Origin: an uncultured Planctomycetales bacterium
GTDB lineage: Bacteria > Omnitrophota > Gorgyraeia > Gygaellales > Profunditerraquicolaceae
Direction: 5' to 3'
Length of the DNA stretch: 41,026 nucleotides
NCBI GenBank assembly: GCA_964555545.1
Contig: CAZKSS010000001.1
Location: 14,058 to 55,083, forward strand
Below, one piece after another: positions 3,880 through 39,200 of the stretch (position 1 is the stretch's first letter; each line of letters opens with the position of its first letter). The position numbers and the translations under genes are program-made. The notes below the pieces were generated by a model. That model did no database searches, was not told the origin of the DNA, and saw only the letters and a list, made by a program, of their open reading frames with translations.

Positions 3880-5709
3880 TTACGGCTTCAGGATATTTTT
3901 CAGCAGGGTATTTTTCAGGTTGTTGATGATATCCAGCACCGGGGGGATAAATTTATACTTGGGCTCTTTCAGCGTCCCGCTGATACGGATGGTGCCAAAA
4001 GTTCCGGACTCTCCCACTATGGCCGTGGCCACCTCTCTAAAGGTTCGGTTCAGCGGTATAGCATCGCTGAAGACCTGGACGTTAATAGAGGCATCCAAGG
4101 AACTATCAAAGCCGAGTTTGCAGGAGCCGCTTAAGCCCACCAGGTCGCTTTTTAAGTTGAGGTTATCAGAAGTAATGTATCTGTCCCTGATGATAAAATC
4201 TGCTGAGCCCTGATGAAAGATGACGTTGGAGAAATCCTTGATAAAAACCAGTTTACCCAGGCCCTGGAAAAGATTTAATTCCCAGAGTTTTCCGTCGGAC
4301 ATAGAGATATTGCCAGTGCCGCTGATTTTGGAGAAGTCAACGGCAAAACCGTTGAGCCGGACTGCACCCTGGATGATGCCGGAGATATCCTTGTCTCTGG
4401 CTGCGGTGTCTGATTTTAATTTCTCAATTTTTATGCCCCGGATATCCGTGTTCAGCCAATAAGGAAGATTCTCGGCAGTAAGATTTATTTTTGCGCTGGA
4501 GGTAATCGCGCCGTCATACAAGGAAAGATGTAATACCGGTATCCCGCCCAGGCCAGCGGCCTGGTTGTAATTCAGAAAAAGCTGGGTGGCCTCCAGGCCA
4601 AAGGCAGAAACAGCCGGCGAGGATAGGGCTACGCCGACGGCGCAATTTTTTATCTGGTTAAGATTGCCTTTGAGCGCAAACTCTGCATGCACCAGGCCTT
4701 GCAGTTTGGCTGCCTCTAGTTGCGCAGCCTTCTGCTTAAAAATCGCCTTCAGGTCGCTCAGGGAGATATCGGAAATACCCTTTAGGTCTGCGGCTGGAAC
4801 TGCGGGGGTAGAGGTATCCAGGGTTGCGGCAAGTGAAAACCGGGAGTTAAGATAGCTGCCGCTCAGGCGGGAGACATTAATCACTTTATCTGCGACGCTA
4901 AAGTTACCCGCTAAGGCCAGGCCGTGGCTAGAAAGACGCAGTTGCACTAGAGGATGCTTAAAATCTTTAAACTCAAGATTAAGCGTGCCGCTGAAGGCGC
5001 TCTCCGGCGGAAAGAGGTTGAGGCCTTGCGTATAGGCGCAAAATTCACGGGGAGAAAAATCAGCAAAGGTAATCTGGGCAGTCAGTTCCTGCCGGAGAAT
5101 GGCAAATTCGCCTGTGGCCTGTATCTTTGCGGCTCGCCGGCCAGGGATTTCTGAAGCGAAGGTAAAATTTAATTTGGCTGGCAGAGATAAATAGAGCATC
5201 AAGTTGACCTGGTCCAGACTCTGGACAAAAGTCGGCTCTAGCGTATCGTCTTGAAAATCAATGCGGGAACTGCTGACCTTGACCTTTCTCACCCACAAAT
5301 TAAATTTTGCCTTTTTCACAGGGCGCGGCTCTCTTGGTCTAAATAAATCTGCGAGATTAAAGGAATTATCTGCCCGGCGTTGGAGGAATATCACTGCCTG
5401 TCTGATGTTTATAGAAGGAATGATAATCTCCCGTCGCAAAATTGGGAAAATCAGGAAGCCGCAGTCCGCCTCTTTTATGCTGAGTAAGGACTTTTGCGCG
5501 TCGTAAATCTCTAGGTCCCTGAGGACGAAGCCTTTAAAGAGATGAAATTTTAATTCTCCCAGGACAACTCTTTTCTGGGTCTCTTCAGTGAGGCCAGAGA
5601 CAACTAAAGATTTGATTTTGGTGGGCAGGAAGACCTGGTTAAGATAAATCATGCCGCAGGTGATGGCGATGGCAATGACGATAATGACTGAAATAATTTT
5701 TTTCAGCAT
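3880..5709 (-). CDS. AsmA-family / AsmA-like envelope protein
   Basis: 609-aa ORF with a single N-terminal TM anchor (IISVIIVIAIAITCGMIYL) followed by a long beta-rich repetitive region. The assignment is architecture-level only. Confidence 0.6.
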   Translation of the reverse strand: MLKKIISVIIVIAIAITCGMIYLNQVFLPTKIKSLVVSGLTEETQKRVVLGELKFHLFKGFVLRDLEIYDAQKSLLSIKEADCGFLIFPILRREIIIPSINIRQAVIFLQRRADNSFNLADLFRPREPRPVKKAKFNLWVRKVKVSSSRIDFQDDTLEPTFVQSLDQVNLMLYLSLPAKLNFTFASEIPGRRAAKIQATGEFAILRQELTAQITFADFSPREFCAYTQGLNLFPPESAFSGTLNLEFKDFKHPLVQLRLSSHGLALAGNFSVADKVINVSRLSGSYLNSRFSLAATLDTSTPAVPAADLKGISDISLSDLKAIFKQKAAQLEAAKLQGLVHAEFALKGNLNQIKNCAVGVALSSPAVSAFGLEATQLFLNYNQAAGLGGIPVLHLSLYDGAITSSAKINLTAENLPYWLNTDIRGIKIEKLKSDTAARDKDISGIIQGAVRLNGFAVDFSKISGTGNISMSDGKLWELNLFQGLGKLVFIKDFSNVIFHQGSADFIIRDRYITSDNLNLKSDLVGLSGSCKLGFDSSLDASINVQVFSDAIPLNRTFREVATAIVGESGTFGTIRISGTLKEPKYKFIPPVLDIINNLKNTLLKNILKP

Positions 5710-5730
5710 AACAAGACGAGGGAAAAAGGT

Positions 5731-6453
5731 TTAGTCCGTGGCGCAGCCTAAAGGAAGATTCCGGTCTACGAAGTCAATAATCTTTTTCTGGGTGTCGTGG
5801 GTAATATTATGGAATTCTAAACCCATGCCCGGATAAATCTGCGGCTGAATCTCTTTCTCTACTAACCAGATCACCTTGCACTGCAGTTCCAGGAGCCCGG
5901 GCTTAGGCAGAAGGGCAAGCCGGACATCCAATATTTCTCCTAAGGGATAGCTCTTATCCGCAAAAACCAATAAGCCCAGACCGCTGATATTTAAGACCTT
6001 GCCGGCATTGAATTTTTCGTTTTTGCCGGCGGATTTGAATTCTATATCTATATCCAGAGGCAGGCGCTTGAACCTGCGCCGCAGTTGTTTCTTCTGAATT
6101 TCGGCAATCACCTGGTCTTCCTCAAAGGCCCGCAGGGCGAATTCCTCCTCCGGATACATTTCAAAAACCCGGTCCAGGCCAACCAGGCAGAAGACCTTGT
6201 GCAGGTGTGCGGCGACCTTAGTAAATTTTATCCTGCCCTTGTGGTTGGTGACGTCTTTGTAGGCAATGGCCAAGACCGATAATCCGGCATAATCCACCAA
6301 ATTCACATTTTCAAAATTACAGAGTATGTCCCGGTAGCCGTTACCCAGGCACCAGGCGACCATTTCAATAAAATTGGCGCAGTTAATATCAATGCTGCCG
6401 GTCAGATCCAGGATGGCGATGGTCTTGGACCTACGAAAATCAATTTCCAACAT
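5731..6453 (-). CDS. STAS domain (anti-sigma antagonist-like) fused to PilZ c-di-GMP-binding domain
   Basis: 240-aa ORF. The N-terminal ~110 aa are STAS-like. The C-terminal part carries PilZ motifs: RxxxR within QLRRRFKR, and (D/N)xSxxG as NISGLG. Confidence 0.75.
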   Translation of the reverse strand: MLEIDFRRSKTIAILDLTGSIDINCANFIEMVAWCLGNGYRDILCNFENVNLVDYAGLSVLAIAYKDVTNHKGRIKFTKVAAHLHKVFCLVGLDRVFEMYPEEEFALRAFEEDQVIAEIQKKQLRRRFKRLPLDIDIEFKSAGKNEKFNAGKVLNISGLGLLVFADKSYPLGEILDVRLALLPKPGLLELQCKVIWLVEKEIQPQIYPGMGLEFHNITHDTQKKIIDFVDRNLPLGCATD

Positions 6454-6523: not shown

Positions 6524-6693
6524 ACAACTTACGCAGCGCAAGCGACGTAAGTTGTAGTCCCGCCACAGGCGGGACGTCTGCGAATTAACCCCGCCCTTTT
6601 GGCAAGGCAGGCAATCGAAGCATAACCTGCCCAAAAGGGCGGGGTAAATTCAGCCCGCAAACTTATGTTCGCTATCGCTCCATAAGTTTGGGC
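6524..6693. repeat. Cluster of four consecutive strong hairpins (REP-like or small structured RNA)
   Basis: Inverted repeats: 6524-6533/6546-6555 (10 bp, with a GCAA tetraloop inside), 6557-6564/6568-6575 (8 bp), 6588-6602/6631-6645 (15 bp, with a nested GGCAGG/CCTGCC stem), and 6654-6668/6681-6693 (13 bp with a 2-nt bulge). None is followed by a U-tract. Confidence 0.55.
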
Positions 6694-6698
6694 TTCAT

Positions 6699-8123
6699 TT
6701 ATTTTTTCTGGCGCATAAACTTTTTGGCGGCCTGAAGCGCTTGCTGGCGGTTCTGGATTTTGCCGATGGCCTGCAGTTCCTCTACTTCGCGTAGCATTGC
6801 GCCGATTAAAGGCGAGGGCTCCAATTTGAATTCCCGGATTAAATCGTCGCCGGTTACTAGGCGCGGCTCTTTTTTTTCTTTCTGCTGCTGAAAATATTCC
6901 TGAAGCAAAGCAGAAACCATTTTTTCATGGCGCATCCTGGAGGCCTTGGTGGTCAGCCGGCCTTTGGTAGAGCGCTGGTCAGCCAAGGAAATCAAGAGCG
7001 TGCTGGCGGCCTCATCCTGGGTATCGCGGAAATATCTGAATTTTGCCCGCGCCGTCAGGTTTACGTTATCCGCCAGATAACCCGGCCTTAAATGCCAGAA
7101 GACCATCTTTTTTAAGGCCAGGACTTCGTCGTTAGAAAGTTTCAGGCGCCTGGAGAGGTCTTCAGTAATCTTGGCCCCTATCCTTTCGTGGCCGTGGAAG
7201 ATGGTCTTGCCTTTTTTGCGGCGCCTGGCTTGGGGTTTTCCGATGTCGTGTAAAAGCGCGCCTAACTTCATTAATGCCCGACGCCTCCTCTGTGAAGAGA
7301 TAACCTCATCCAGGTAATCCTGGATTTCCCTATTCTTTTTTAAATCCTCAAACAATAGTTCCAACTGCCTTAAGGTCTCAAAACTATGTTTATGGACGTC
7401 CAGATGATGATACGGCCCCTGGTCCACCCCGCGCATAACTTCAAACTCCGGAAAAACCACCTTTAGTATTTTTAATTTATCCATCCGGCTAAGACACTCA
7501 GAGGCGCAGGGGCTGTCAAAAATTTTAAATAGCTCGTCGCGGATGCGCTCAGGCGATACGCCGGATAATTTCTTTTTCTTTGCCGCGATTGACCTTAAGG
7601 TCTGCTGGTCTATCTTAAATCCGAGCATACTGGAAAAACTAAAGGCGCGCAAGATCCTTAAGGGGTCTTCGTCAAAGGAATGCGCATTTACCTGCCTGAT
7701 TATTTTATCTCTTAAGTCGCCCCTGGCGTTATAAAGGTCAAGCAAGAGATCGCTCCCCAGTTCCCTGCTCAGCGTATTGATGGTGAAGTCGCGGTGGCGC
7801 AGGTCCTCGGCCAGGGTCCGGCCGCGGAAGTCGGTAAAATCCAAGGTATAGGTTTTATCTTTAATCTTTTTTACCAGACGGGCTGCGCCGTGGGCTTTGT
7901 CCAAGACCACAAAACCGGCTTTTATTTTTTTGCTTAAGGCGCGGCCAAAACTTATCGCGCCCTTTTTCAGGCAAAAATCTATATCCGGGCTCTCCCTCTT
8001 TCTCTTCAAAAGCATATCGCGTAGATAGCCGCCGACAATATAGAGTTTTACTTTTCTGGCCTTGGCAAACCCTAAAACCACTCCCAACAACTTTCTATCC
8101 TCTGCTTTTGTTAATATGCTCAT
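6699..8123 (-). CDS. cca: CCA-adding tRNA nucleotidyltransferase / poly(A) polymerase family with HD domain
   Basis: 474-aa ORF with the N-terminal nucleotidyltransferase motif (IVGGYLRDMLL...DIDF) and a C-terminal HD motif (LLHDIGKP). Confidence 0.8.
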   Translation of the reverse strand: MSILTKAEDRKLLGVVLGFAKARKVKLYIVGGYLRDMLLKRKRESPDIDFCLKKGAISFGRALSKKIKAGFVVLDKAHGAARLVKKIKDKTYTLDFTDFRGRTLAEDLRHRDFTINTLSRELGSDLLLDLYNARGDLRDKIIRQVNAHSFDEDPLRILRAFSFSSMLGFKIDQQTLRSIAAKKKKLSGVSPERIRDELFKIFDSPCASECLSRMDKLKILKVVFPEFEVMRGVDQGPYHHLDVHKHSFETLRQLELLFEDLKKNREIQDYLDEVISSQRRRRALMKLGALLHDIGKPQARRRKKGKTIFHGHERIGAKITEDLSRRLKLSNDEVLALKKMVFWHLRPGYLADNVNLTARAKFRYFRDTQDEAASTLLISLADQRSTKGRLTTKASRMRHEKMVSALLQEYFQQQKEKKEPRLVTGDDLIREFKLEPSPLIGAMLREVEELQAIGKIQNRQQALQAAKKFMRQKK

Positions 8124-8150
8124 TATCGATCATTCTCTTTTAGTAGGTCC

Positions 8151-8360
8151 TGCCTTGGTCTCCTAACTCAATCCCGTCTCCTCACTCGCTAAAAGGTGCT
8201 CGTCGCATTCGGCTCAACTTCTGCTGTAAGCCCCCCATCCCCCACTGACTGGAAAGAGAGGTGGGGGTTGTTCATAGATGCTAAGCACGGAGAAGTCTCG
8301 CCTCATATACTTACTCCTGCGCGCTCTTCAAGCTCGTTCGGAAACGGTCTTGAGTTTTTC
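8151..8360 (-). ncRNA. Conserved 3' domain of an unclassified structured element (copy B, split)
   Basis: Near-identical by eye to 28953-29160. Contains the hairpin CCCCCAC..GTGGGGG and a helix supported by compensatory changes (8218-8224 with 8289-8295). Confidence 0.45.
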
Positions 8361-8403
8361 TTTTTAATACCTGTAAAATTGATTTCTTTAATAACGGATG
8401 GCA

Positions 8404-8934
8404 TTATTGCAGTGGCGGCGGTAATCCTAAGAAATCTAAAGGTAACTCGTAGAAAAAATAATGGCAGCCAACTGACTTGACATATTCTAAGACATCTCTA
8501 TATTGTTCTTTCTTAAACCAATCATTTAAAATATACACATATTCAACTGCGATTTCTAAAGGCGCAAGTAACTTCTTATATTGGCGATATTTAAAATCGC
8601 AGGTTTGCAATTTTTCATCAACCGATCCAGTCACTTCTTGAAACTTAATTTCAATGATAAAAAGAGTCTTACCAGTAAAAATTAATATGGCTTCATCGGG
8701 TAATAATTTTTTTGAAATAATAGATGAAAAATCAATATTATTCGGCTCTAGTAAGTTTTTATATAATTTATTTTTCCCATAGAATTCAGCGACTCTTTCA
8801 TTTTGGAAATAAACTGTATCGCCTTTAATTTTGTAGCCGGCTAAAGAAGCTAAGAGCTTTTTCATCTCTACTCTTGACTCAAATCTTAAGCCCGCTATTG
8901 CTGTCTTAGAACCTCCCTTACCACCACGGATCAT
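8404..8934 (-). CDS. Putative type II restriction endonuclease (PD-(D/E)xK fold)
   Basis: 176-aa ORF whose start overlaps the methyltransferase stop by 4 nt (ATGA). Carries a PD...ExK motif (LLPDEAILIFTGKTLFIIEIKFQ). The region is AT-rich. Confidence 0.6.
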   Translation of the reverse strand: MIRGGKGGSKTAIAGLRFESRVEMKKLLASLAGYKIKGDTVYFQNERVAEFYGKNKLYKNLLEPNNIDFSSIISKKLLPDEAILIFTGKTLFIIEIKFQEVTGSVDEKLQTCDFKYRQYKKLLAPLEIAVEYVYILNDWFKKEQYRDVLEYVKSVGCHYFFYELPLDFLGLPPPLQ

Positions 8935-16815: not shown

Positions 16816-17847
16816 CTACAAGATTTCGACTGATTTTTTGCCTCTCACTACTTCGCCGATAACCCAGGATTTAAGTTTGGACTTGGCTAATTTTGCGATA
16901 ATACTTTTTGCGGCGCTGGGCTCAACTATCAAAACCATACCGATGCCCATATTAAAGGTATGATACATTTCTCTATCGTCAATATTGCCTTTGTTCTGAA
17001 TGAGGCGGAAAATCTTGGGCACTGGCCAGGAACCTTTATAGATGCGCACCTTGACATTCTCAGGTAGGATACGCGCGATTTTATCGTAGAAAGCGCCGCC
17101 GGTGATATGAGAAATGCCGTGGATTGTCGTTGGTCGTTGCCTGCCTGCCGGCGAGGCAGGGTCGTTGGTCGTTGGTAATAAAGATAAAACCGGTTTGACG
17201 TAAATCCGTGTGGGCTTCAGCAATTCATCGCTCATCCGCTTTAATTCTTTCTGCGAGAAAACTTTTCTCACCAGAGCAAAGCCATTGGAATGTAGGCCGT
17301 TTGACTCCAGGCCAATTAGCGTGTCACCAACGGCGATTTTCGCACCGTCAATAATATTCCTGCGTTCCACCGCACCCACGCAAAAACCCGCCAGGTCATA
17401 TTCGCCATTTTTATACATCCCCGGCATCTGGGCGGTTTCTCCGCCGATTAAGGAACAGCCGGCCTCAATACAACCTGCGTTTATTCCTTTGACGATATCT
17501 AACAAGGTATCCTCGCTGAGTTTGGCGTAGGCAATATAATCCAGGAAGAATAAAGGCCTGGCACCGCTACACAAAATATCATTTACGTTCATGGCCACGG
17601 CATCAATGCCTACTCTATCGTGCTTTTGCGCTAAGGCGGCTATTTTTAATTTTGTGCCTACGCCGTCGGCAGAAGAGACCAAGACCGGGTCTTGAAATTT
17701 GTTCTGGAATCGGAAAAATGCGCCGAAGCCGCCGATATCTTTGAGAACTTCGGGAGAAAAAGATTTCCTGAGTAGTGTTTTTATCTTGGCCTTGAAGGCA
17801 CTTGCACTTTTAATATCCACTCCTGACTTTTTATAAGTTAATCTCAC
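16816..17847 (-). CDS. purM: Phosphoribosylformylglycinamidine cyclo-ligase (AIR synthetase)
   Basis: 343-aa ORF with PurM blocks (GGFGA, DGVGTK, HITGGAF). Carries a ~48-nt repeat/hairpin segment inside the reading frame. Confidence 0.95.
   Translation of the reverse strand: MRLTYKKSGVDIKSASAFKAKIKTLLRKSFSPEVLKDIGGFGAFFRFQNKFQDPVLVSSADGVGTKLKIAALAQKHDRVGIDAVAMNVNDILCSGARPLFFLDYIAYAKLSEDTLLDIVKGINAGCIEAGCSLIGGETAQMPGMYKNGEYDLAGFCVGAVERRNIIDGAKIAVGDTLIGLESNGLHSNGFALVRKVFSQKELKRMSDELLKPTRIYVKPVLSLLPTTNDPASPAGRQRPTTIHGISHITGGAFYDKIARILPENVKVRIYKGSWPVPKIFRLIQNKGNIDDREMYHTFNMGIGMVLIVEPSAAKSIIAKLAKSKLKSWVIGEVVRGKKSVEIL
17126..17174. repeat. Composite element within the purM reading frame: 2 heptamers, a 21-nt hairpin, then 2 heptamers
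   Basis: Reads GTCGTTG GTCGTTG, then CCTGCC-TGCCGGCGA-GGCAGG, then GTCGTTG GTCGTTG. It encodes PTTNDPASPAGRQRPTT just upstream of the conserved HITGG block. Confidence 0.85.
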
Positions 17848-19293
17848 CTAAATCGCTCCCTGTCCGCAACAATGCTCTTCCAGCGAAAATTTGCCCTGCT
17901 TCTTCTCCGGTTTCAAGGGGTAGCGACCAGTCCAGCAGGCAGTGCAATAATTGCTCTCGTGCTGCCCCAGGCATCCGAGCATCCCTTCCAGGCCTAAATA
18001 ACCGAGGCTATCCACATCCAGGAACTTTCTGATTTTATCTAAAGATGCGTATTTATTGGCGATTAATTCCCAGGCCCGATGAAAATCTATGCCGTAGAAA
18101 CAGGGAAAACGATGCGGCGGGCAGGAAATCCTTAAATGCACTTCCTTAACCCCGGCTCTCCTTAAATTGCGCACGCGGATTTTTGAAGTGGTGCCTCTTA
18201 CGATGGAGTCATCGACGATAACGATGCGTTTTCCTTTCAGAACATCGTGCAGCAAATTAAATTTTACCCTCACCCCCAGATCCCGCGCATCCTGCGCCGG
18301 CTGAATAAAGGTGCGGCCGACATAGTGGTTGCGGATAATGCCCATTTCTAAAGGTATGCCTGATTCTCGGGAATATCCTAAAGCCGCGGAAAATCCCGAA
18401 TCCGGCACCGGCACCACAAAATCCGCCTCTACCGGATGCTCTCTGGCTAACTGCTCCCCTAATTTAGAGCGCACCGTATGCACAGTCTCTCCAAAAACAA
18501 CAGAATCCGGACGGGAAAAATATACGTGCTCAAAGATACAAAATGCACGCCTGTGGTTGGCCTTCAGGCCCTGGGGACTAATGGACCTGACCGCACCGCT
18601 CCTCTTGATAAAAATAATTTCTCCCGGAGCAATCTCGCGGATGTATTTGGCTCCGATTAAATCAAAGGCACAGGTTTCGGAGGCCAGGCACCAGGTATTA
18701 GCGATTTTTCCCAGGACCAGCGGCCGAAAGCCCAGGGGGTCTCTGATGCCAATGAGGGTATCGTTATCCATCATCACTAAAGAATACGCGCCCTTGATTC
18801 TTTTTAAGGCATAGATGAGGCTATCTTCTAAATTCCTGGTCCTGCTCCTGGCCATGAGATGAATGATAATTTCGGAATCAGTGGTGGTCTGAAATATCGA
18901 GCCGGTCTTTTCCAGGTATTGGCGTAGTTCTAACGAATTGACTAAATTTCCGTTATGGGCAATACAGATTGTGCCTTTGGCAAAATCTATTAATAAGGGC
19001 TGGGCATTCTTTAAGACGCTGGAGCCGGTAGTGGAATAACGCACATGTCCGACGGCAATATCCCCTTTTAATTTATGGATAATCTCAGCGTTAAACACAT
19101 CATTCACTAGGCCGGTGTCTTTGTGTAGCGTCAAGATGCCTTTGTGATTAGCGACGATCCCGCAGGCCTCCTGGCCCCGGTGCTGCTGGGCATAAAGCCC
19201 CAGATACGTCAGCCAACTGGCGTGCCGGTTATTTATGATACCGAACAGACCGCAGTATTCTTTCGGCTCTTCGCTGAAATTTTTCTTTTGCAT
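17848..19293 (-). CDS. purF: Amidophosphoribosyltransferase
   Basis: Ntn nucleophile motif ..EYCGLFGI after a short propeptide, PRTase loop VDDSIVRGTT and C-terminal Fe-S cysteines (CTACWTG). The likely start is MQKK at 19293; the ORF track extends to 19338. Confidence 0.93.
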   Translation of the reverse strand: MQKKNFSEEPKEYCGLFGIINNRHASWLTYLGLYAQQHRGQEACGIVANHKGILTLHKDTGLVNDVFNAEIIHKLKGDIAVGHVRYSTTGSSVLKNAQPLLIDFAKGTICIAHNGNLVNSLELRQYLEKTGSIFQTTTDSEIIIHLMARSRTRNLEDSLIYALKRIKGAYSLVMMDNDTLIGIRDPLGFRPLVLGKIANTWCLASETCAFDLIGAKYIREIAPGEIIFIKRSGAVRSISPQGLKANHRRAFCIFEHVYFSRPDSVVFGETVHTVRSKLGEQLAREHPVEADFVVPVPDSGFSAALGYSRESGIPLEMGIIRNHYVGRTFIQPAQDARDLGVRVKFNLLHDVLKGKRIVIVDDSIVRGTTSKIRVRNLRRAGVKEVHLRISCPPHRFPCFYGIDFHRAWELIANKYASLDKIRKFLDVDSLGYLGLEGMLGCLGQHESNYCTACWTGRYPLKPEKKQGKFSLEEHCCGQGAI

Positions 19294-20702
19294 GGGCGCT
19301 CCTCTTGCGGTTCTCTCCCCTGCCAACAGTAGAGACAAAGACTTTCTCTGGGCAGGCCGATGGCTTCAACCATATCGTTTGATTTCTGATATTTTAAGGT
19401 GGTGACCCCCAAGTCTTTACGGATCCATTCTACCATCTTTTTATATTTTGGGGAATTTTCATCTAGGTATGCACTTACATCTTCTAAGTCTTCACCTTCC
19501 AGCGCCCGGATCGCCCTGCGCGCAGCCAACTCGTGGATACTCCTCGTGGAATAGTTAAACTTACAGGGAAACATCAAAGGCGGGCAAGCAATTCTTAAGT
19601 GGATTTCTTTTGCGCCGTTTTCCAGAAGTTTCTGGATAGTGTAATTTTTCAATTGCGTTCCCCGGACAATAGAATCATCGCAGAACACCATGCTTTTATT
19701 TTTAATTATCTCTGGTATGGGAATTAATTTCATCTTCGCAATCAAATCCCTCTCTTCCTGTGAAGGCGGCGTATAACTGCGGTCAAAGCCCGGAGTATAT
19801 TTGACTAGCGGCCTACGCAACGGTATCCCTGAACCCATGGCATAACCAATCGCATGCGCAGTACCCGAATCCGGAATCCCTGAAACCATATCTGCTTCTA
19901 TATTGTCTGCCTTGGCTAAAAAATTTCCGCTCTTTTCCCTGGCTATCTCTACATTTAATCCTTCATAACTGGAGGCGGGGAATCCCGTATAGATCCACAA
20001 AAACGCACAGATCTGGTTGCATCCCCCTCCTTTTATCTTAGACTGCAGGCCGACCTCGCTTAAAAGGATAATCTCGCCGGGCTGAATTTCTTTCCGGATC
20101 TTAAATCCTAAGTTATGAAAGGCTGAGGTTTCAGTGGTTACTGCCCAGTCTTTGTCCCTCTCCCCTATAATCAACGGCGAATAACCGTATCTATCCCGGG
20201 CGGCATAAAGGCCTTCTTTGGCCAAGAGAAGCAAAGAACAGGAGCCTTTAATCTGGGAAAACAGGTATTCAATCCCATTGACAATCGTGTCGCCGTCTAA
20301 TATAAGTTTTCCTACCAGTTCAGTCTGATTGACTTTTCCATCGGTCACCTCGCTGAAAGACCGGCCCTCTTTATACATTTGAGCGGCTAACTCCTCGGCA
20401 TTATCAATAAAACCGTTGGTGACGATAGCAAAAGGTCCAAACTTGGAATGAATGTATATCGGCTGCTCGTCAATTGCGCTGATTACACCTATCCCTTTAG
20501 ATGCGCCTTCCATCTTTTTATAATCTTCATAAAACTTTGCCTTGAACTGGCTGCCTCTAATATCGTGGATCCGGCGTATTATTTCGCCTTTCCAAACTGC
20601 TAGGCCGGCGAATCGTGTGCCCAGATGCGAATGATAATCTGTGCCGTAGAATAAATCCTCGTGGCAATTCTCTTTAGACACAATCCCGAAAATTCCGCTC
20701 AT
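19233..20702 (-). CDS. PurF-like amidophosphoribosyltransferase paralog with Ser replacing the nucleophile Cys
   Basis: 489-aa ORF preceded by GAGGAG-N6-ATG. The N-terminus is MSGIFGIV (AGC Ser where PurF has Cys). It retains the PRTase loop CDDSIVRGTQ and Fe-S-type cysteines (CPPLMFPC, CLYCWQG). Confidence 0.8.
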   Translation of the reverse strand: MSGIFGIVSKENCHEDLFYGTDYHSHLGTRFAGLAVWKGEIIRRIHDIRGSQFKAKFYEDYKKMEGASKGIGVISAIDEQPIYIHSKFGPFAIVTNGFIDNAEELAAQMYKEGRSFSEVTDGKVNQTELVGKLILDGDTIVNGIEYLFSQIKGSCSLLLLAKEGLYAARDRYGYSPLIIGERDKDWAVTTETSAFHNLGFKIRKEIQPGEIILLSEVGLQSKIKGGGCNQICAFLWIYTGFPASSYEGLNVEIAREKSGNFLAKADNIEADMVSGIPDSGTAHAIGYAMGSGIPLRRPLVKYTPGFDRSYTPPSQEERDLIAKMKLIPIPEIIKNKSMVFCDDSIVRGTQLKNYTIQKLLENGAKEIHLRIACPPLMFPCKFNYSTRSIHELAARRAIRALEGEDLEDVSAYLDENSPKYKKMVEWIRKDLGVTTLKYQKSNDMVEAIGLPRESLCLYCWQGREPQEERPCKRKISAKSRKNTAVCSVS

Positions 20703-20714
20703 TTTTAGCTCCTC

Positions 20715-21503
20715 TTAAAAACGTTTTCTAATATATTCGATGCCGTTTTGAAAAATTGCTAGACCGTCACCCTCTTTTTTCTTCAACCAACGCGGATGCT
20801 GTTCGGCAAAAATATGTCTTTCTGGATGCGGCATTAGTCCCAAAATCCTGCCGCTATCATCGCAGATTCCGGCGATATTATCCAGAGAGCCGTTAGGGTT
20901 ATGTGGATAGCCAGCAAGGCGGCCTTTTCTATCGCAATATTGAAAAACGATCTGGCCGTTTCTTCTCAATCTCTGCAAAATCTTCTTATCTCTAGTAACA
21001 AACTTGCCTTCTCCATGCGCCACGGGCAGATAGATAACTTCAGGCAAATGCCTAGCCCATATACATTTGGTCGTTGGTCGTTGGTCGTTGGTCGTTAGTA
21101 AATAAGTCCATCTGTCTTCAAACTTTGCCGAATCATTAAGCATCAGGCTGGCCTCCTGGCGCAAATCCCTATTACCCGGCAGGAGCCCGGCCTTGACCAA
21201 AACCTGAAAGCCGTTACAGATACCGATAATCAGTTTTCCTTTCCGGATGAACTGACGCAGGTCATCAATAAGTTTATACCTTAATTCATTGGCCAAGATT
21301 TTTCCCGCGCCCAGGTCATCTCCGTAAGTAAACCCCCCCGGGATAGCCAAGATCTGGTAATCCGCAAGGGCCTTGCGCTTAGTGACTAAACTATTTATAT
21401 GTACTAATTCGCTGAGCGCTCCTACTTTGTTAAAGGCAAAAGCAGTCTCTTGGTCGCAGTTGGTACCTGCGGTTCTTAAAACGCAGACTCTAGGTCTTAA
21501 CAT
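20715..21503 (-). CDS. purQ: FGAM synthase glutaminase subunit
   Basis: 262-aa ORF of a class I amidotransferase, with the nucleophile elbow GICNGFQ and the HGEG / MPHPER blocks. Contains (GGTCGTT)x4. Confidence 0.93.
   Translation of the reverse strand: MLRPRVCVLRTAGTNCDQETAFAFNKVGALSELVHINSLVTKRKALADYQILAIPGGFTYGDDLGAGKILANELRYKLIDDLRQFIRKGKLIIGICNGFQVLVKAGLLPGNRDLRQEASLMLNDSAKFEDRWTYLLTTNDQRPTTKCIWARHLPEVIYLPVAHGEGKFVTRDKKILQRLRRNGQIVFQYCDRKGRLAGYPHNPNGSLDNIAGICDDSGRILGLMPHPERHIFAEQHPRWLKKKEGDGLAIFQNGIEYIRKRF
21069..21096. repeat. Perfect heptanucleotide tandem repeat (GGTCGTT)x4 inside purQ
   Basis: Four exact units are read directly. On the coding strand (AACGACC)n is translated as TTNDQRPTT. 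Confidence 0.95.
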
Positions 21504-22158: not shown

Positions 22159-25109
22159 CTTAACGGCTCCTTCCATGTTTCTTTCATCTCTTGAATATCC
22201 GCTTTGATACAAATTTTCCCGTCTAAGCCATGAACCTGAAATTCTTTTTTTGCGCTGGTGCAACCGATTAAGCCAAAGGGAAGGCCCGCAAGTATTCTTT
22301 CAAACTTTTTCTGATTCTTTTTGGAGACTTCTACAATAAAACGGGAGTTAGATTCCGAAAATAAAATAAAGTCATTCCTTAAATTTTCTATTTTTGGTTT
22401 TTGATTTGTATTTTTGATTTTATATGGCACTTCTGACAAAAATAAATCCATGCCCCACCCGCCGGAAAAAACCATCTCTGCTGCGGCCACGCCGATGCCG
22501 CCGTCGGAACAGTCGTGCATGGCTTGCACCAGACCCGCGGAAGAAGCCCGGCTTAAGGCAGCAAAAATTTTTTTGGCTTGAGCAGGATAAACCCTGGGCA
22601 CATTATTACCGATAGCGCCGGACAAATCATAATAATGCGAGCCGCCTAATTCAGGATAAGTTTCCCCGACTACGTAAACCAAATCCCCCGGCTCTTTGGC
22701 AGACAGAGAAACTGCTTTACTGACCTCGTCCATCACGGCCAGGGCAGAAATCAGAAGCGTCCCAGGGATGCTTAAGGATTTTCCCTTAACCGTGTATTCG
22801 TTATTCAGACTGTCTTTACCGGAGATAAAGGGAATTCCAAAACCCTTGGCAATAGCATAACAACCCCGGGCCGCCCTGACTAAACTCCCCAACCTGTCAG
22901 GCTTATCCGGATTGCCCCAGCAGAAATTATCCAGAATCGCCACTTCTTTTAAAGAGCCACCCACGGCAATAATCTGGCGCAAGGCCTCGTCAATACAGGA
23001 GGCAGCCATCCAATAAGGGTCAATAAAACCGAACCTGAAATTAATCCCGTTGGCGACAACAATTCCTTTTTTTGAATTTAAAAGCGGCCTCACAATGCTG
23101 GCGTCGGACGGGCCGTCGTTAAGTAACCCCACCAAGGGTTTTAAAACCGAGCCTCCCTGCACCTCGTGGTCGTATTGGCGGATGACCCACTCTTTGGAAC
23201 AGGTATCATAATGCGCCAGCAATTTTAGTAAATATTTGGTCAGGTCCCTGGGGCATTTGAATTCCGGCTCTCTGTGTCTGGGTTGCATAAATACCGCTTT
23301 CTTCTCTATCTCCGGAATCCCCTCGTGCAGAAAGCGCATTGCCAGGTCGCAGACGAGATTATCCTGATAATAAAGCTGCAGCCTTTTCGTAGCGGTAAAT
23401 TCGCCGATTACGGTTGCCTCCACGTCCTCCTGATGAAAAACTTCTAATAAGGCATCTAAGTTTTCAGGCGCTACCGCAAGCACCATCCGCTCCTGCGACT
23501 CAGAAATCCAGATCTCGGTGTAAGACAGGCCTGCATATTTTAAAGGGACTTTCTCTAAATAAACCTTCGCCCCTAATTCCGCGGCCATTTCTCCTACTGC
23601 ACTGGATAACCCGCCGGCGCCGCAGTCAGTAATGGCATTATAGAGATTTTTATCGCGCGCCATAATAATCGCATCCAGCATCTTTTTTTCCTGAATAGGA
23701 TTGCCAACTTGCACTGCGCCGCTGGAGAGCGTCTCTGATTCGTGGGTCAATTCGCCCGAAGAAAATGTCGCGCCGTGAATTCCGTCCCTGCCGGTCCTGC
23801 CGCCGACCAGCACTATCAGATCGCCTGTCTTTGCCTGCTTAAAAGATTTTTCTTTAGGCATAATCCCGACTGTGCCGCAATAGACCAGCGGATTTCCTAC
23901 AAAGCCGTCGTGAAAAAGTATGGCTCCGTTTACGGTCGGAATACCCATTTTGTTACCATAGTCGCGCACGCCGGAGACCACGCCTTTCATAATCCGCTTG
24001 GGATGCAACGTCCCTGCCGGCAAGCGGCCAAAAGGATAATCCGGTGGCCCGAAACAAAAAACATCAGTATTCAGTATTGGTTTTGCGCCCAGGCCTGTTC
24101 CCAGGGGGTCACGGATTACTCCGCCCACGCCGGTATTCGCCCCGCCAAAAGGCTCTAAGGCCGAAGGATGATTATGGGTCTCCACCTTAAAACAAATATT
24201 GTATTTATCGTCAAAGCGGATTACCCCGGAATTATCCTTGAACACCGAAACACACCAGGGCTTATTTAACTCTTTGGTCACCTTCATAATGGTAGATTTA
24301 AGTAAATTATCAATCCTTCTTTTCTGTACCCTGTACCCTCTATCCTCTACCCTGACCTTCTCGCGATATTTTATCTTTCCTCTGAATGTCTTATGCCAGC
24401 AATGTTCTGACCAGGTCTGGGCAATGGTCTCTAATTCGCAGTCACTAGGATTGCGTTTTATTTTTTTAAAATAATCCTTGATCCGGCGCATCTCCGCCAA
24501 ATTCAGGAATAACTGGCCTTGTTTACTGATATCCAATAATTTTCTATCCGAAGCATTTGATAAATCAACGGTAATGAGTCCGAAAACTAAAGATCCGCCC
24601 GCTATTAAAGACCCGGTCTTACAGGTCACTTTATCTTCTTGCAAGACCGGGTCTTTAATAATATGCTGGATTAATTTATTATAAAGCAATTTCTCGGAGA
24701 TGGTCTTTAACTGCCGAGGGGAAAGTCTGCCTTGGATAATATATTTCTTTGCGGTCTTAAAGGAAGTAACGCTATCTATGCCTAAGTCTTTTATGCCTTT
24801 TAAGGCCGATTCTTCCACCGGATCCATTACGCCCGGGTTGTAGGCGGCTTCAACTATAAATTCGTCCCTCGTCCCTCGTCCCTCGTCCTTCGTATTAATA
24901 GCGTAATTCTGGGAAATCTTATCGGTAAGTAATTCCTGGCAAATCCTCTCAATCTCACTTTCAGAAACCTCGCCTTCAATGGTATAGACCTGTGCGTACT
25001 CAACTCGGCGGACAGAATTCACCCCTAAGTCCAGGATATCTTTCTTGATGCCCGCGCCCACCGCATCAAAAACTCCGGGCCTGTCTTTTACCTCAATCCG
25101 ATAAAACAT
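22152..25109 (-). CDS. purL: FGAM synthase II with two N-terminal PurS-like modules (PurS-PurS-PurL fusion)
   Basis: 985-aa ORF. Residues ~1-75 and ~85-150 each resemble PurS (V.DPxG-like, LG..V, LL...I..Y). The PurL core begins near WSEHCWHKTF. Three heptamer-repeat segments lie inside. Confidence 0.93.
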   Translation of the reverse strand: MFYRIEVKDRPGVFDAVGAGIKKDILDLGVNSVRRVEYAQVYTIEGEVSESEIERICQELLTDKISQNYAINTKDEGRGTRDEFIVEAAYNPGVMDPVEESALKGIKDLGIDSVTSFKTAKKYIIQGRLSPRQLKTISEKLLYNKLIQHIIKDPVLQEDKVTCKTGSLIAGGSLVFGLITVDLSNASDRKLLDISKQGQLFLNLAEMRRIKDYFKKIKRNPSDCELETIAQTWSEHCWHKTFRGKIKYREKVRVEDRGYRVQKRRIDNLLKSTIMKVTKELNKPWCVSVFKDNSGVIRFDDKYNICFKVETHNHPSALEPFGGANTGVGGVIRDPLGTGLGAKPILNTDVFCFGPPDYPFGRLPAGTLHPKRIMKGVVSGVRDYGNKMGIPTVNGAILFHDGFVGNPLVYCGTVGIMPKEKSFKQAKTGDLIVLVGGRTGRDGIHGATFSSGELTHESETLSSGAVQVGNPIQEKKMLDAIIMARDKNLYNAITDCGAGGLSSAVGEMAAELGAKVYLEKVPLKYAGLSYTEIWISESQERMVLAVAPENLDALLEVFHQEDVEATVIGEFTATKRLQLYYQDNLVCDLAMRFLHEGIPEIEKKAVFMQPRHREPEFKCPRDLTKYLLKLLAHYDTCSKEWVIRQYDHEVQGGSVLKPLVGLLNDGPSDASIVRPLLNSKKGIVVANGINFRFGFIDPYWMAASCIDEALRQIIAVGGSLKEVAILDNFCWGNPDKPDRLGSLVRAARGCYAIAKGFGIPFISGKDSLNNEYTVKGKSLSIPGTLLISALAVMDEVSKAVSLSAKEPGDLVYVVGETYPELGGSHYYDLSGAIGNNVPRVYPAQAKKIFAALSRASSAGLVQAMHDCSDGGIGVAAAEMVFSGGWGMDLFLSEVPYKIKNTNQKPKIENLRNDFILFSESNSRFIVEVSKKNQKKFERILAGLPFGLIGCTSAKKEFQVHGLDGKICIKADIQEMKETWKEPLRW
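22391..22424. repeat. Imperfect heptamer-like tandem repeat (TTTTTGR) inside the purL 3' region
   Basis: Reads TTTTTGG TTTTTGA TTTGTA TTTTTGA TTTTATA. It encodes KNTNQKPKIEN. Confidence 0.55.
24324..24358. repeat. Heptanucleotide tandem repeat (CTGTACC family, 5 units) inside purL
   Basis: Reads CTGTACC CTGTACC CTCTATC CTCTACC CTGACCT. It encodes VRVEDRGYRVQ. Confidence 0.85.
24863..24893. repeat. Heptanucleotide tandem repeat (CGTCCCT)x3 plus a degenerate unit inside purL
   Basis: Reads CGTCCCT CGTCCCT CGTCCCT CGTCCTT CGT. It encodes KDEGRGTRDE, located between the two PurS-like modules. Confidence 0.92.
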
Positions 25110-37913: not shown

Positions 37914-39200
37914 TCATCTTGCCACCTCTAATTTTGCCCTTTTTATGGACTGCACTAACCTGCGTTTTGCCGGACAGACATAGTTGCAGAGCCCGCATTC
38001 AATACAATCGGCTGCGCCGTAGCCTGCGGCCTGCTGCCATAATTCCTTCTCCGCAGCCAAGTTTATCAGGCAGGGCATCAGGCTCACCGGGCATTCCCTG
38101 ACGCAGGCGCCGCAACGGATACAGAATTCCTCTTCCAGCATCCTGGCTTCTTTTTTATTGAACAATACTACCCCGGTCGTAGACTTGATTACCGGGACCT
38201 CTTCTGTAAATTGGGCAATGCCCATCATCGGCCCCCCGATAATAATTTTAGCCGGATCTTCCTTTAGACCGCAGAAATCCATTAATTCCTTTATGGGCGT
38301 ACCAAGACGCACTAAAATATTCTTGGGATTATTTAGGCAACTACCCGTTACCGTCACTACGCGTTCATATAAAGGTTTATTTTTATAAACGGCTTCGTAA
38401 ATAGCATATAGCGTGGATACATTCTGCACCACCACGCCGATGTCAAAGGGAAGTTTCCCCTGCGGAACTTCCTTGCCTAAAATATTCTTTATCAGCTGTT
38501 TTTCTCCTCCCTGCGGATAAGCGCTTTTTAAAACCCAAACGCTGAACGCTGAACGCTGAACGCTGAATTTCTCTATGGCTTCGGGCTTATTATCTTCGAT
38601 AGCGATAAATACATTCTTCGCCCCTAAACACCTAACCGCCAATTCCATCCCTTGGCAGATCTCCTCTGTTCTTTCTACCATCAGCCGCGCGTCGCCGGTC
38701 AAAAAGGGTTCGCACTCCGCGCCATTGACAATCAAAGTATCTACTGGCTGAGGGGGATTAAGTTTGATGTGGGTAGGAAAACTCGCCCCGCCCAGGCCGA
38801 CAATCCCTGCCTCAAAGACGAGATTGCGGATCTGTTCAGCATCTAACTTGTCTATCTCCGGCTGAACCCTGAACCCTGAACCCTGAACCCTGTCCTGCCC
38901 GTCATTCTCAATTATTATTGTCTTACAGCGGCCGAGGACAGGATGCGGCCATTCCTGGATAGCGCAAACCCTGCCTGAAACCGACGAGTGGATGGGGGCA
39001 GAGACATGCGCCTCAATAGCGGCAATTTTTTGGCCGAGAAACACGGTGTCTCCTACTTTCACCAGCGGTTGACAGACCTTGCCCACGTGCTGGCTTAAAG
39101 GAATGTATACGCGCGCCGGCAAAGGCGCTCTTTCTATGGCTTTGTCTTGTGTATCTTGTTTATGTTCTTCTAATTCAACCATGGAATCTTTCTCTGCCAA
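37914..39200 (-). CDS. rnfC: Rnf complex subunit C
   Basis: 428-aa ORF with GLGGASFPT, YPQGGEKQLI and two C-terminal CxxCxxCxxxCP motifs. An alternative start lies at 39182. Contains two perfect heptamer arrays. Confidence 0.92.
   Translation of the reverse strand: MAEKDSMVELEEHKQDTQDKAIERAPLPARVYIPLSQHVGKVCQPLVKVGDTVFLGQKIAAIEAHVSAPIHSSVSGRVCAIQEWPHPVLGRCKTIIIENDGQDRVQGSGFRVQPEIDKLDAEQIRNLVFEAGIVGLGGASFPTHIKLNPPQPVDTLIVNGAECEPFLTGDARLMVERTEEICQGMELAVRCLGAKNVFIAIEDNKPEAIEKFSVQRSAFSVWVLKSAYPQGGEKQLIKNILGKEVPQGKLPFDIGVVVQNVSTLYAIYEAVYKNKPLYERVVTVTGSCLNNPKNILVRLGTPIKELMDFCGLKEDPAKIIIGGPMMGIAQFTEEVPVIKSTTGVVLFNKKEARMLEEEFCIRCGACVRECPVSLMPCLINLAAEKELWQQAAGYGAADCIECGLCNYVCPAKRRLVQSIKRAKLEVAR
38540..38567. 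repeat. Perfect heptanucleotide tandem repeat (CGCTGAA)x4 inside rnfC
   Basis: Four exact units are read directly. On the coding strand (TTCAGCG)n is translated as FSVQRSAFSV. Confidence 0.95.
38862..38896. repeat. Perfect heptanucleotide tandem repeat (CTGAACC)x4 plus a degenerate unit inside rnfC
   Basis: Four exact units followed by CTGTCCT. The coding strand is translated as QDRVQGSGFRVQP. Confidence 0.95.

Follow-up and report, generated by a model that had tools for sequence, protein, structure and literature searches.

The stretch of DNA analysed here (the window) comprises 41,026 nucleotides of contig CAZKSS010000001.1, from an uncultured bacterium of the phylum Omnitrophota. Its minus strand carries purM (16816-17847), an open reading frame (ORF) of 343 codons encoding AIR synthetase, with matches to the Pfam families AIRS and AIRS_C. 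Within purM, in the loop that precedes the GISHITGG strand, lies a composite of 51 nt (17126-17176), which consists of a 30-nt heptamer array and a 21-nt core that splits it. On the plus strand the order is (GTCGTTG)x2, CCTGCCTGCCGGCGAGGCAGG, and then (GTCGTTG)x2 followed by GT. The 14-mer GTCGTTGGTCGTTG therefore occurs twice, at 17126-17139 and 17161-17174, with the palindrome CCTGCC-TGCCGGCGA-GGCAGG between the two copies (17140-17160). This is exactly the layout described in an initial annotation of the window, which gave a span of about 48 nt. The start and the parts were correct; the end was not, since the right half-array, as delimited by Tandem Repeats Finder, runs 2 bases past 17174 to 17176. 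We conclude that the composite is probably made of two nested layers of repeat DNA, both of which are tolerated because they are translated as a disordered surface loop.

Read on the coding strand, the composite is CCAACGA CCAACGA C, then CCTGCCTCGCCGGCAGGCAGG, then CAACGA CCAACGA CA. It is in frame within purM and encodes PTTNDPASPAGRQRPTT; its translation, LLPTTNDPASPAGRQRPTTIHGISHITGG, has the parts PTTND-PASPAGR-QRPTT and stands immediately upstream of IHGISHITGG. In the coding direction, the 5′ half-array (17161-17176, minus strand, unit CCAACGA) encodes PTTND, and its phase carries on into the other half if the core is taken out. The core (17140-17160, minus strand), an imperfect palindrome, encodes PASPAGR(Q) and is one copy of a dispersed mini-element, and the 3′ half-array (17126-17139, minus strand) encodes QRPTT. 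Deletion of the core leaves an exact 30-nt array, both in the window and in L004, one of the Omnitrophota loci described below. The core hairpin has a stem of 5+3 bp, with a folding energy of -11.7 kcal/mol for the 21-mer alone. The 81-nt RNA context has -13.1 kcal/mol and is no more stable than shuffled sequences (z = -0.34). A search of the window against Rfam found no family at the composite, the sole matches being two tRNAs.

There is no second copy of the core in the window, even with 3 mismatches allowed. The initial annotation had seen a kinship between the stem and hairpins at 6606-6631, on the basis of the hexamers GGCAGG and CCTGCC. These hexamers are common in the window (22 and 28 occurrences), and the proposed kinship is not upheld. 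That region has two GC-rich hairpins, at 6558-6577 and approximately 6588-6647, within a 245-nt gap between a PilZ/STAS gene and the gene for the CCA-adding enzyme. One of the two is a long stem, ACCCCGCCCTTTTGG...CCAAAAGGGCGGGGT. Neither hairpin has an Rfam match, and both are unrelated to the core.

When up to 2 mismatches are allowed, the 14-mer is found 5 times in the window, where 0.08 occurrences are expected. The window's perfect tandem repeats with a period from 4 to 12 and a length of at least 17 nt are five period-7 arrays and one 6-mer, and nothing else. The excess of the 14-mer together with the exclusivity of period 7 excludes an origin of the composite by chance. The idea that assembly produced it as an artefact, or that it is a local duplication by chance, is scarcely credible. 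No point was found to support it, and the expectation by chance is close to zero. An identical purM with its composite is present on a second contig, from ENA metagenome assembly ERZ27245470 (which may share the window's source and so may not be independent of it), and the phenomenon is seen in dozens of metagenome-assembled genomes from various studies and assemblers, in a single-cell genome and in a 1.19-Mb contig.

Comparison with solved structures shows that the PurM proteins of E. coli and Vibrio lack 13 residues that stand here after the helix ...VLELIEK and before the strand VHAIAHLTGG. In an AlphaFold2 model of the window PurM, residues 222-241 form a coil, with the predicted local distance difference test (pLDDT) score falling below 50 at residues 228-235; the mean pLDDT is 71.6. 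The insertion is thus located in a loop, as the initial annotation had suggested. Those close homologues of PurM that bear names are all from Omnitrophica/Omnitrophota metagenome-assembled genomes. Among 120 PurM homologues with 71-76% identity, the stretch enclosed by LSLL and I[KH]GI[AS]HITGG is hypervariable. In most of them it is 10-12 residues long and repeats every 7 residues (for example RTTNYELRTT, RNTQYSIRNT, HGTRYTVHST, YAKRYTLNAK and QASGFRLQAS), and in 14 of the 120 it has merely 5-6 residues.

The DNA of 80 Omnitrophota species genomes was taken (loci around purM, designated L002-L081), and the PurM site could be read in 72. Half of these (36/72) have a segment of 9-21 amino acids at the identical codon position, which is mostly encoded by DNA of period 7 or 8. 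The array unit varies from genome to genome, and includes CGAACTA, CGCAATA, CACGGTA, TCCACTA, CGACCAT, AGGGTTA, AAAGTCAC and others. The remaining 36 genomes have loops of 5-8 amino acids without repeats, such as PDKNIK and RQYGQSVH. The site has 19 residues in the window compared with 5-8 in these repeat-free relatives, which again agrees with an insertion. Arrays of period 8 (for example AAAGTCAC and GGTCACCA) share loop sites with those of period 7, in PurM and PurQ of L019, L024, L029, L036, L039, L047 and L048; they are 33-39 nt long and in frame. The PurM site of L054 holds a period-16 duplication. A neighbour-joining tree of PurM was star-like at 71-77% identity, and gave no answer as to whether groups with the same unit are clades.

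In the initial annotation the heptamers were read as the ends of a hairpin insertion. They are not, because the array of about 30 nt was there before the core: orthologues carry it uninterrupted at the same codon position. In L221 and L222, PurM has the same cassette family as the window without the core (CTAACGA-CTAACGA-CCAACGA-CCAACGA-CT), and this is an empty-site allele. The core is found in PurM arrays of three different units, namely CCAACGA in the window, TCCGCTA in L004 (encoding PCLAGRQ) and CGCAATA in L223 (encoding PALPAGRQ), with different offsets and reading frames, and a 19-nt variant of it is found in PurM of L068. The core has entered the PurM array on at least three independent occasions. 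It is present in just 3-4 of about 190 PurM orthologues, and we see no sign of the domestication that had been envisaged.

Outside PurM, the core is widely dispersed; its absence elsewhere would have told against the initial annotation, and is not what we find. JGI metagenomes were scanned for CCTGCCTNGCCGGCAGGCAGG, and at least 120 contigs were found (L082-L201), with at least 124 distinct flanking contexts. The figures in this and the following paragraph are for the matches listed. The contigs are mostly 29-49% GC, and by our estimate fewer than one chance match to the core is expected at such composition. Of 127 copies, 79 (62%) lie within ORFs of at least 150 amino acids. Arrays of period 7 or 8, built from more than 20 different units, surround 28 of 124 copies (about 23%), and the other 77% or so are free of arrays. 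Given that arrays occupy about 0.4% of the core-bearing contigs, the core has a preference for arrays of approximately 50-fold. The phase of the array is unshifted across the core in 26 of the 28 embedded copies, three of them in period-8 arrays, which implies that insertion of the core involved neither duplication of the target nor replacement of three heptamers. Such a replacement had been considered because 21 = 3 x 7, and was rejected on the further ground that the host arrays have their full length, about 32 nt, without the core. The offset of the core within the array ranges from 9 to 26 nt.

To the left of the core there is a weak bias towards A-T-C, and to its right towards a pyrimidine. 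The core itself is free of stop codons in all six frames unless its variable eighth base is A, which creates TAG in two of the six. This base is T in 67 copies, C in 37, G in 16 and A in 4, and the rarity of the stop-making A suggests selection by coding context. Across the versions of the variable base, the core folds with a stem of 7-8 bp and an energy of -10.4 to -14.9 kcal/mol. In L194 (three copies), L197, L177, L129 (two copies) and L175, it lies inside longer palindromic or dispersed repeats, with surroundings such as ..CCTGTCCGCCGTAGC[core]CTTGGCGAAGGAGG.. and ..GACGATTTCAAGTTTTTC[core]TTTGGCGGCAAATTC.., and these longer repeats look like larger miniature elements.

Taxonomy was examined for one of the contigs, L089, which is of low GC and encodes a TsaD (5080-6180) with the composite FPASPAGRQFPIS. 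The named homologues of this TsaD are from Patescibacteria or Parcubacteria, and the core and the arrays are consequently present in at least two phyla; most orthologues of the protein lack the insert. In the two phyla, 20 of the 21 bases of the core are the same. Phage was also considered as a vector, and was rejected: there are 19 matches in viral contigs, mostly of 65-69% GC, none of them in arrays and several of them duplicates, and these are probably unrelated GC-rich palindromes.

It could be argued that the half-array, the hairpin and the second half-array are a single miniature mobile element, with the heptamers as its own terminal direct repeats. The dispersal of the core makes this unlikely, since the matches listed have it next to more than 20 different units, at offsets that vary, and for the most part away from any array. 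Most orthologues with an array at the PurM site moreover have one that is uninterrupted and of normal length, and purQ of the window carries such an array too. The best argument for a single element comes from L004, where the 51-nt composite (a TCCGCTA array plus core) is found twice, in MiaB (602-654) and in PurM (4689-4742), identical over more than 58 nt and with the core at an equal offset. Entire composites are therefore also copied, and a weaker form of the single-element idea survives. The MiaB gene of L004 has a second, different array at 910-943.

Turning to the arrays, we counted those of at least 24 nt in 1.25 Mb of Omnitrophota DNA and found 71 with a period of 7 and 17 with a period of 8. 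For periods 4, 5, 6, 9, 10 and 11 the numbers are 1, 0, 3, 7, 2 and 4. The excess of period 7 is also seen in the window and in the core-bearing contigs. Most of the arrays (73/88, or 83%) lie inside long ORFs, in frame and at recurrent orthologous sites. These sites are the PurM loop, PurQ between EDRWVYL and KCVWTK, PurL at residues ~75, 160, 250 and 905, PurD between FHAGTK and TNGGRV, the N-terminus of PurF, and MiaB.

The additional period-7 arrays of the window are about 30 nt long (4.3 units), and all are genic and in frame. There are seven, ranging from perfect to decayed, in purQ, purL (three), rnfC (two) and purD; one of the seven is at 22390-22421. Their units differ, except that purQ and purD carry the purM cassette. 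The purQ array (21067-21096, minus strand, as are all those that follow) is intact, reads CTAACGA + CCAACGA x3 + CCAA, and encodes LTTNDQRPTTK. The purD copy (14982-15014) has decayed to CTAACGA CCACAGA CCTTCGA CTAACGA CTAAA, and forms a 7-residue insertion compared with a solved PurD structure. An array of GGGACGA on the coding strand is located where PurS and PurL join in the fused purSL gene (24862-24893), and a partly decayed GGTACAG array is found in purL (24324-24354), at the recurrent site after KIKY.E. The two arrays in rnfC are perfect, with the coding-strand units CAGCGTT (38538-38567) and GGTTCAG (38862-38892), the latter where the RnfC_N domain ends.

Different sites of one genome have a unit in common, allowing one mismatch, in 20 of 75 pairs (27%), compared with 92 of 2385 pairs (3.9%) between genomes (odds ratio 9, p = 3e-11). 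The pattern CTAACGA-CCAxCGA-CCAxCGA-CTAACGA is found in three genes of the window (purQ, purD and purM) and in three of L033 (PurL, PurQ and PurD). Because arrays have such internal variant patterns in common, they must be copies of one another and not independent products of slippage. Hairpins of 15-43 nt that are unrelated to the core are also nested in heptamer or octamer arrays, at 8887-8949 in L005 (PurM), 8155-8208 in L014 (PurQ), 4286-4357 in L041 (PurL) and 13609-13682 in L006. The arrays serve as landing sites for several families of hairpin.

The arrays, with or without the hairpin, might be functional signals in pur mRNA or DNA, such as regulator binding, pause or processing sites, that coordinate purine biosynthesis. 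Such signals would account for the strong enrichment of arrays in pur genes relative to neighbouring genes, for the conservation of their positions across genomes, and for the preference for four units, which the GGGNATC repeats found between genes in Xanthomonas and Nostoc also show (PMC4692102). We regard this as quite improbable, given that the units are unlike both between genes of one genome (five in the window) and between genomes at one site. In L032 and L033, one unit family runs both with and against the coding strand. Arrays are missing from half of the orthologues and are present in rnfC, miaB and the Patescibacteria-like tsaD too, and no Rfam family matches the site.

Judged from their sequences, the arrays appear to be translated. 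Substitutions are located where a perfect repeat would yield an in-frame TAA (L041, L033), and the encoded peptides are rich in S, R, K, T and Q; both features agree with translation of the arrays and with selection in favour of harmless loops. They also bear on the suggestion that the insert is bypassed by the ribosome, in the manner of the gap in T4 gene 60 or of mitochondrial 'byp' elements, or that the heptamers are a phase-variable contingency switch. The codons on either side of the hairpin are identical, as they are at bypass take-off and landing sites, and slippage of a 7-nt unit would shift the frame. All the genic arrays and cores found nevertheless keep the frame and have no in-frame stops, and the substitutions fall exactly at the would-be stops, a constraint to which bypassed elements are not subject. 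The genes are single-copy housekeeping genes, essential by inference, and slippage would be rare with just four units or so. Neither a bypass nor a switch is at all probable.

In the two-layer explanation that we prefer, the first layer is the cassette of about 30 nt, with four-and-a-bit heptamers, that lies between the last helix and the HITGG strand in the C-terminal domain of PurM. Such cassettes occupy a fixed set of loop sites in housekeeping enzymes (PurM, PurQ, four sites in PurL, PurD, PurF, MiaB and RnfC), and are copied or homogenised between sites within one genome. Selection would pass lengths that keep the frame and units without an in-frame stop, and nothing else. The second layer is the GC-rich 21-nt imperfect palindrome, placed precisely in the middle of the PurM cassette with neither target duplication nor deletion. 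This core is a dispersed and presumably mobile mini-element, able to land harmlessly in genes because it is seven codons long and free of stops in six frames. We infer that both layers are selectively neutral or selfish. The core may move as a single-strand hairpin handled by a trans-acting HUH/RAYT-like enzyme, or by template switching at slipped repeats, and the cassettes may be renewed by ectopic conversion between arrays, which is our preferred guess.

A number of results weigh against this explanation. In L002-L081, the pur genes account for 47.5% of the DNA and contain 75 of the 83 arrays (p = 2.5e-16), and this is not predicted by a purely neutral model. Perfect arrays have been kept at the same site across lineages that are 25-30% apart in PurM protein sequence, and the mechanism of their renewal is left unexplained, since a simple slip of one unit would put an essential gene out of frame. 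The duplicated composite of L004 fits copying of the whole composite at least as well as it fits two insertions of the core. Finally, in the 120 contigs listed neither a transposase nor any other protein family is found repeatedly within 2.5 kb of the cores, and the window encodes no transposase or reverse transcriptase (Pfam, 37 ORFs), so the means by which the core moves is as yet unsupported.

A bolder and distinctly less probable proposal, which we offer tentatively, is that Omnitrophota and Patescibacteria share an active, enzyme-driven system of two parts: a writer of loop cassettes, and a 21-nt hairpin that homes to the cassettes. The first part would write or replace cassettes of about four heptamers or octamers at fixed loops, giving genome-specific 'rewritable' peptide loops. 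If this were true, we would be dealing with a new class of repeat system, mobile or templated, as opposed to passive slippage plus decay, and the 21-nt hairpin would be among the smallest site-preferring mobile DNAs known.

The presence of non-triplet tandem repeats as stable, translated parts of conserved and presumably essential housekeeping enzymes has some practical consequences. Gene callers, and alignment and phylogeny pipelines, will face hypervariable loops of 10-19 amino acids that originate at the DNA level, and estimates of protein divergence in Omnitrophota and Patescibacteria are affected. There is also a bearing on how far repeat-prone small genomes tolerate slippage. We know of no account, since the Nostoc SDR report of 2008, that settles how hairpin elements of about 20 nt spread. 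This type of element is now seen in two uncultivated phyla with many public metagenome-assembled genomes. The large number of genomes, together with the occurrence in a universal enzyme of sites that are cleanly filled or empty, makes phylogenetic profiling for the responsible enzyme feasible.

Some other features of the window may be mentioned. Between purD and purM (16125-16792) are a DUF5674 gene of 113 codons and an ORF of 109 codons that belongs to no family, which is odd for a pur operon; the DUF5674 neighbour is present on locus L001 as well. On the other side of purM, two consecutive ORFs (17848-19338 and 19233-20702), which overlap by about 100 nt, encode PurF-like class-II glutamine amidotransferases, and the first alone has a match to a phosphoribosyltransferase domain. 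The region 8001-10000 has a low GC content (39%, compared with about 48%) and encodes an N6/N4 DNA methylase and a 176-residue protein of no family. It may be a restriction-modification islet.

The closest known parallel to a core within an array appears, by analogy, to be the SDR elements of Nostoc. SDR4, SDR5 and SDR6 of Nostoc punctiforme, which Elhai and colleagues are said to have described in 2008 (Genome Res 18:1484, a paper cited in PMC3116915), are reportedly dispersed hairpins of 21-27 nt that are often embedded in tandem heptameric repeats. They are also said to be nested in other small repeats and to have no known mobilising enzyme. The core resembles them in its length of 21 nt, in forming a hairpin, in its dispersal over at least 124 contexts, and in its presence in period-7/8 arrays (28/124 among the matches listed). 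It differs in that the hosts are Omnitrophota and Patescibacteria and not cyanobacteria, and in that array and hairpin are in frame, at fixed loops of conserved housekeeping enzymes; the likeness is drawn from the description of the SDRs.

Heptanucleotide tandem repeats are also known from heterocystous cyanobacteria, as the STRR. Heptamer repeats of GGGNATC in Xanthomonas and Nostoc are mainly intergenic and prefer about four units (PMC4692102), and those of TAACTGA in Beggiatoaceae are likewise mainly intergenic (PMC4679880). Both of these papers cite Mrazek (2007) for an excess of heptamers among long simple-sequence repeats. The Omnitrophota arrays have in common with such repeats the period of 7 and families of units that are specific to a genome, and with GGGNATC the preference for about four units. 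Unlike these known repeats, which are rich in intergenic regions and depleted in genes, 83% of the Omnitrophota arrays are inside ORFs and translated, and one loop site holds different units in different genomes. An explanation of the four units by G-quadruplexes is inapplicable here, because the units are very diverse and mostly not G-rich.

The palindromic elements of Rickettsia, attributed to work by Ogata and colleagues in 2000, are reportedly selfish palindromic DNA of about 100-150 nt, in frame within protein genes and confined to Rickettsia. In both cases a palindrome is found in frame in genes, at surface positions that tolerate it. Our core is different in being only 21 nt long, in belonging to another host lineage, and in its association with tandem heptamers.

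REP and REPIN sequences, which offer an analogue of mechanism, are short, extragenic imperfect palindromes with a conserved 5′ tetranucleotide, and the gene for the RAYT HUH transposase is flanked by REPs (PMC3116915). The core is likewise a short and dispersed imperfect palindrome, and the lack of target duplication is compatible with single-strand hairpin chemistry, as in the IS200/IS605 mode. Unlike REPs, it is mostly genic (79/127 in ORFs of at least 150 amino acids) and has no conserved GTAG-like tetranucleotide at its 5′ side, both among the matches listed. As for a RAYT gene, no family of proteins recurs within 2.5 kb of the cores in the 120 contigs listed, and the window has none. Bypass elements (gene 60/byps) are constrained neither in frame nor in stops, unlike the genic arrays and cores, which keep the frame, and unlike the core, which is stop-free.

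In the literature searched we found the sequence of the core in no paper, and no paper that connects Omnitrophota or Patescibacteria with heptamer repeats. In comparison with the systems described above, the new features are the host phyla, the in-frame placement at loops that are fixed within housekeeping enzymes, the way in which units have turned over at orthologous sites, and a core that is nearly identical across phyla.

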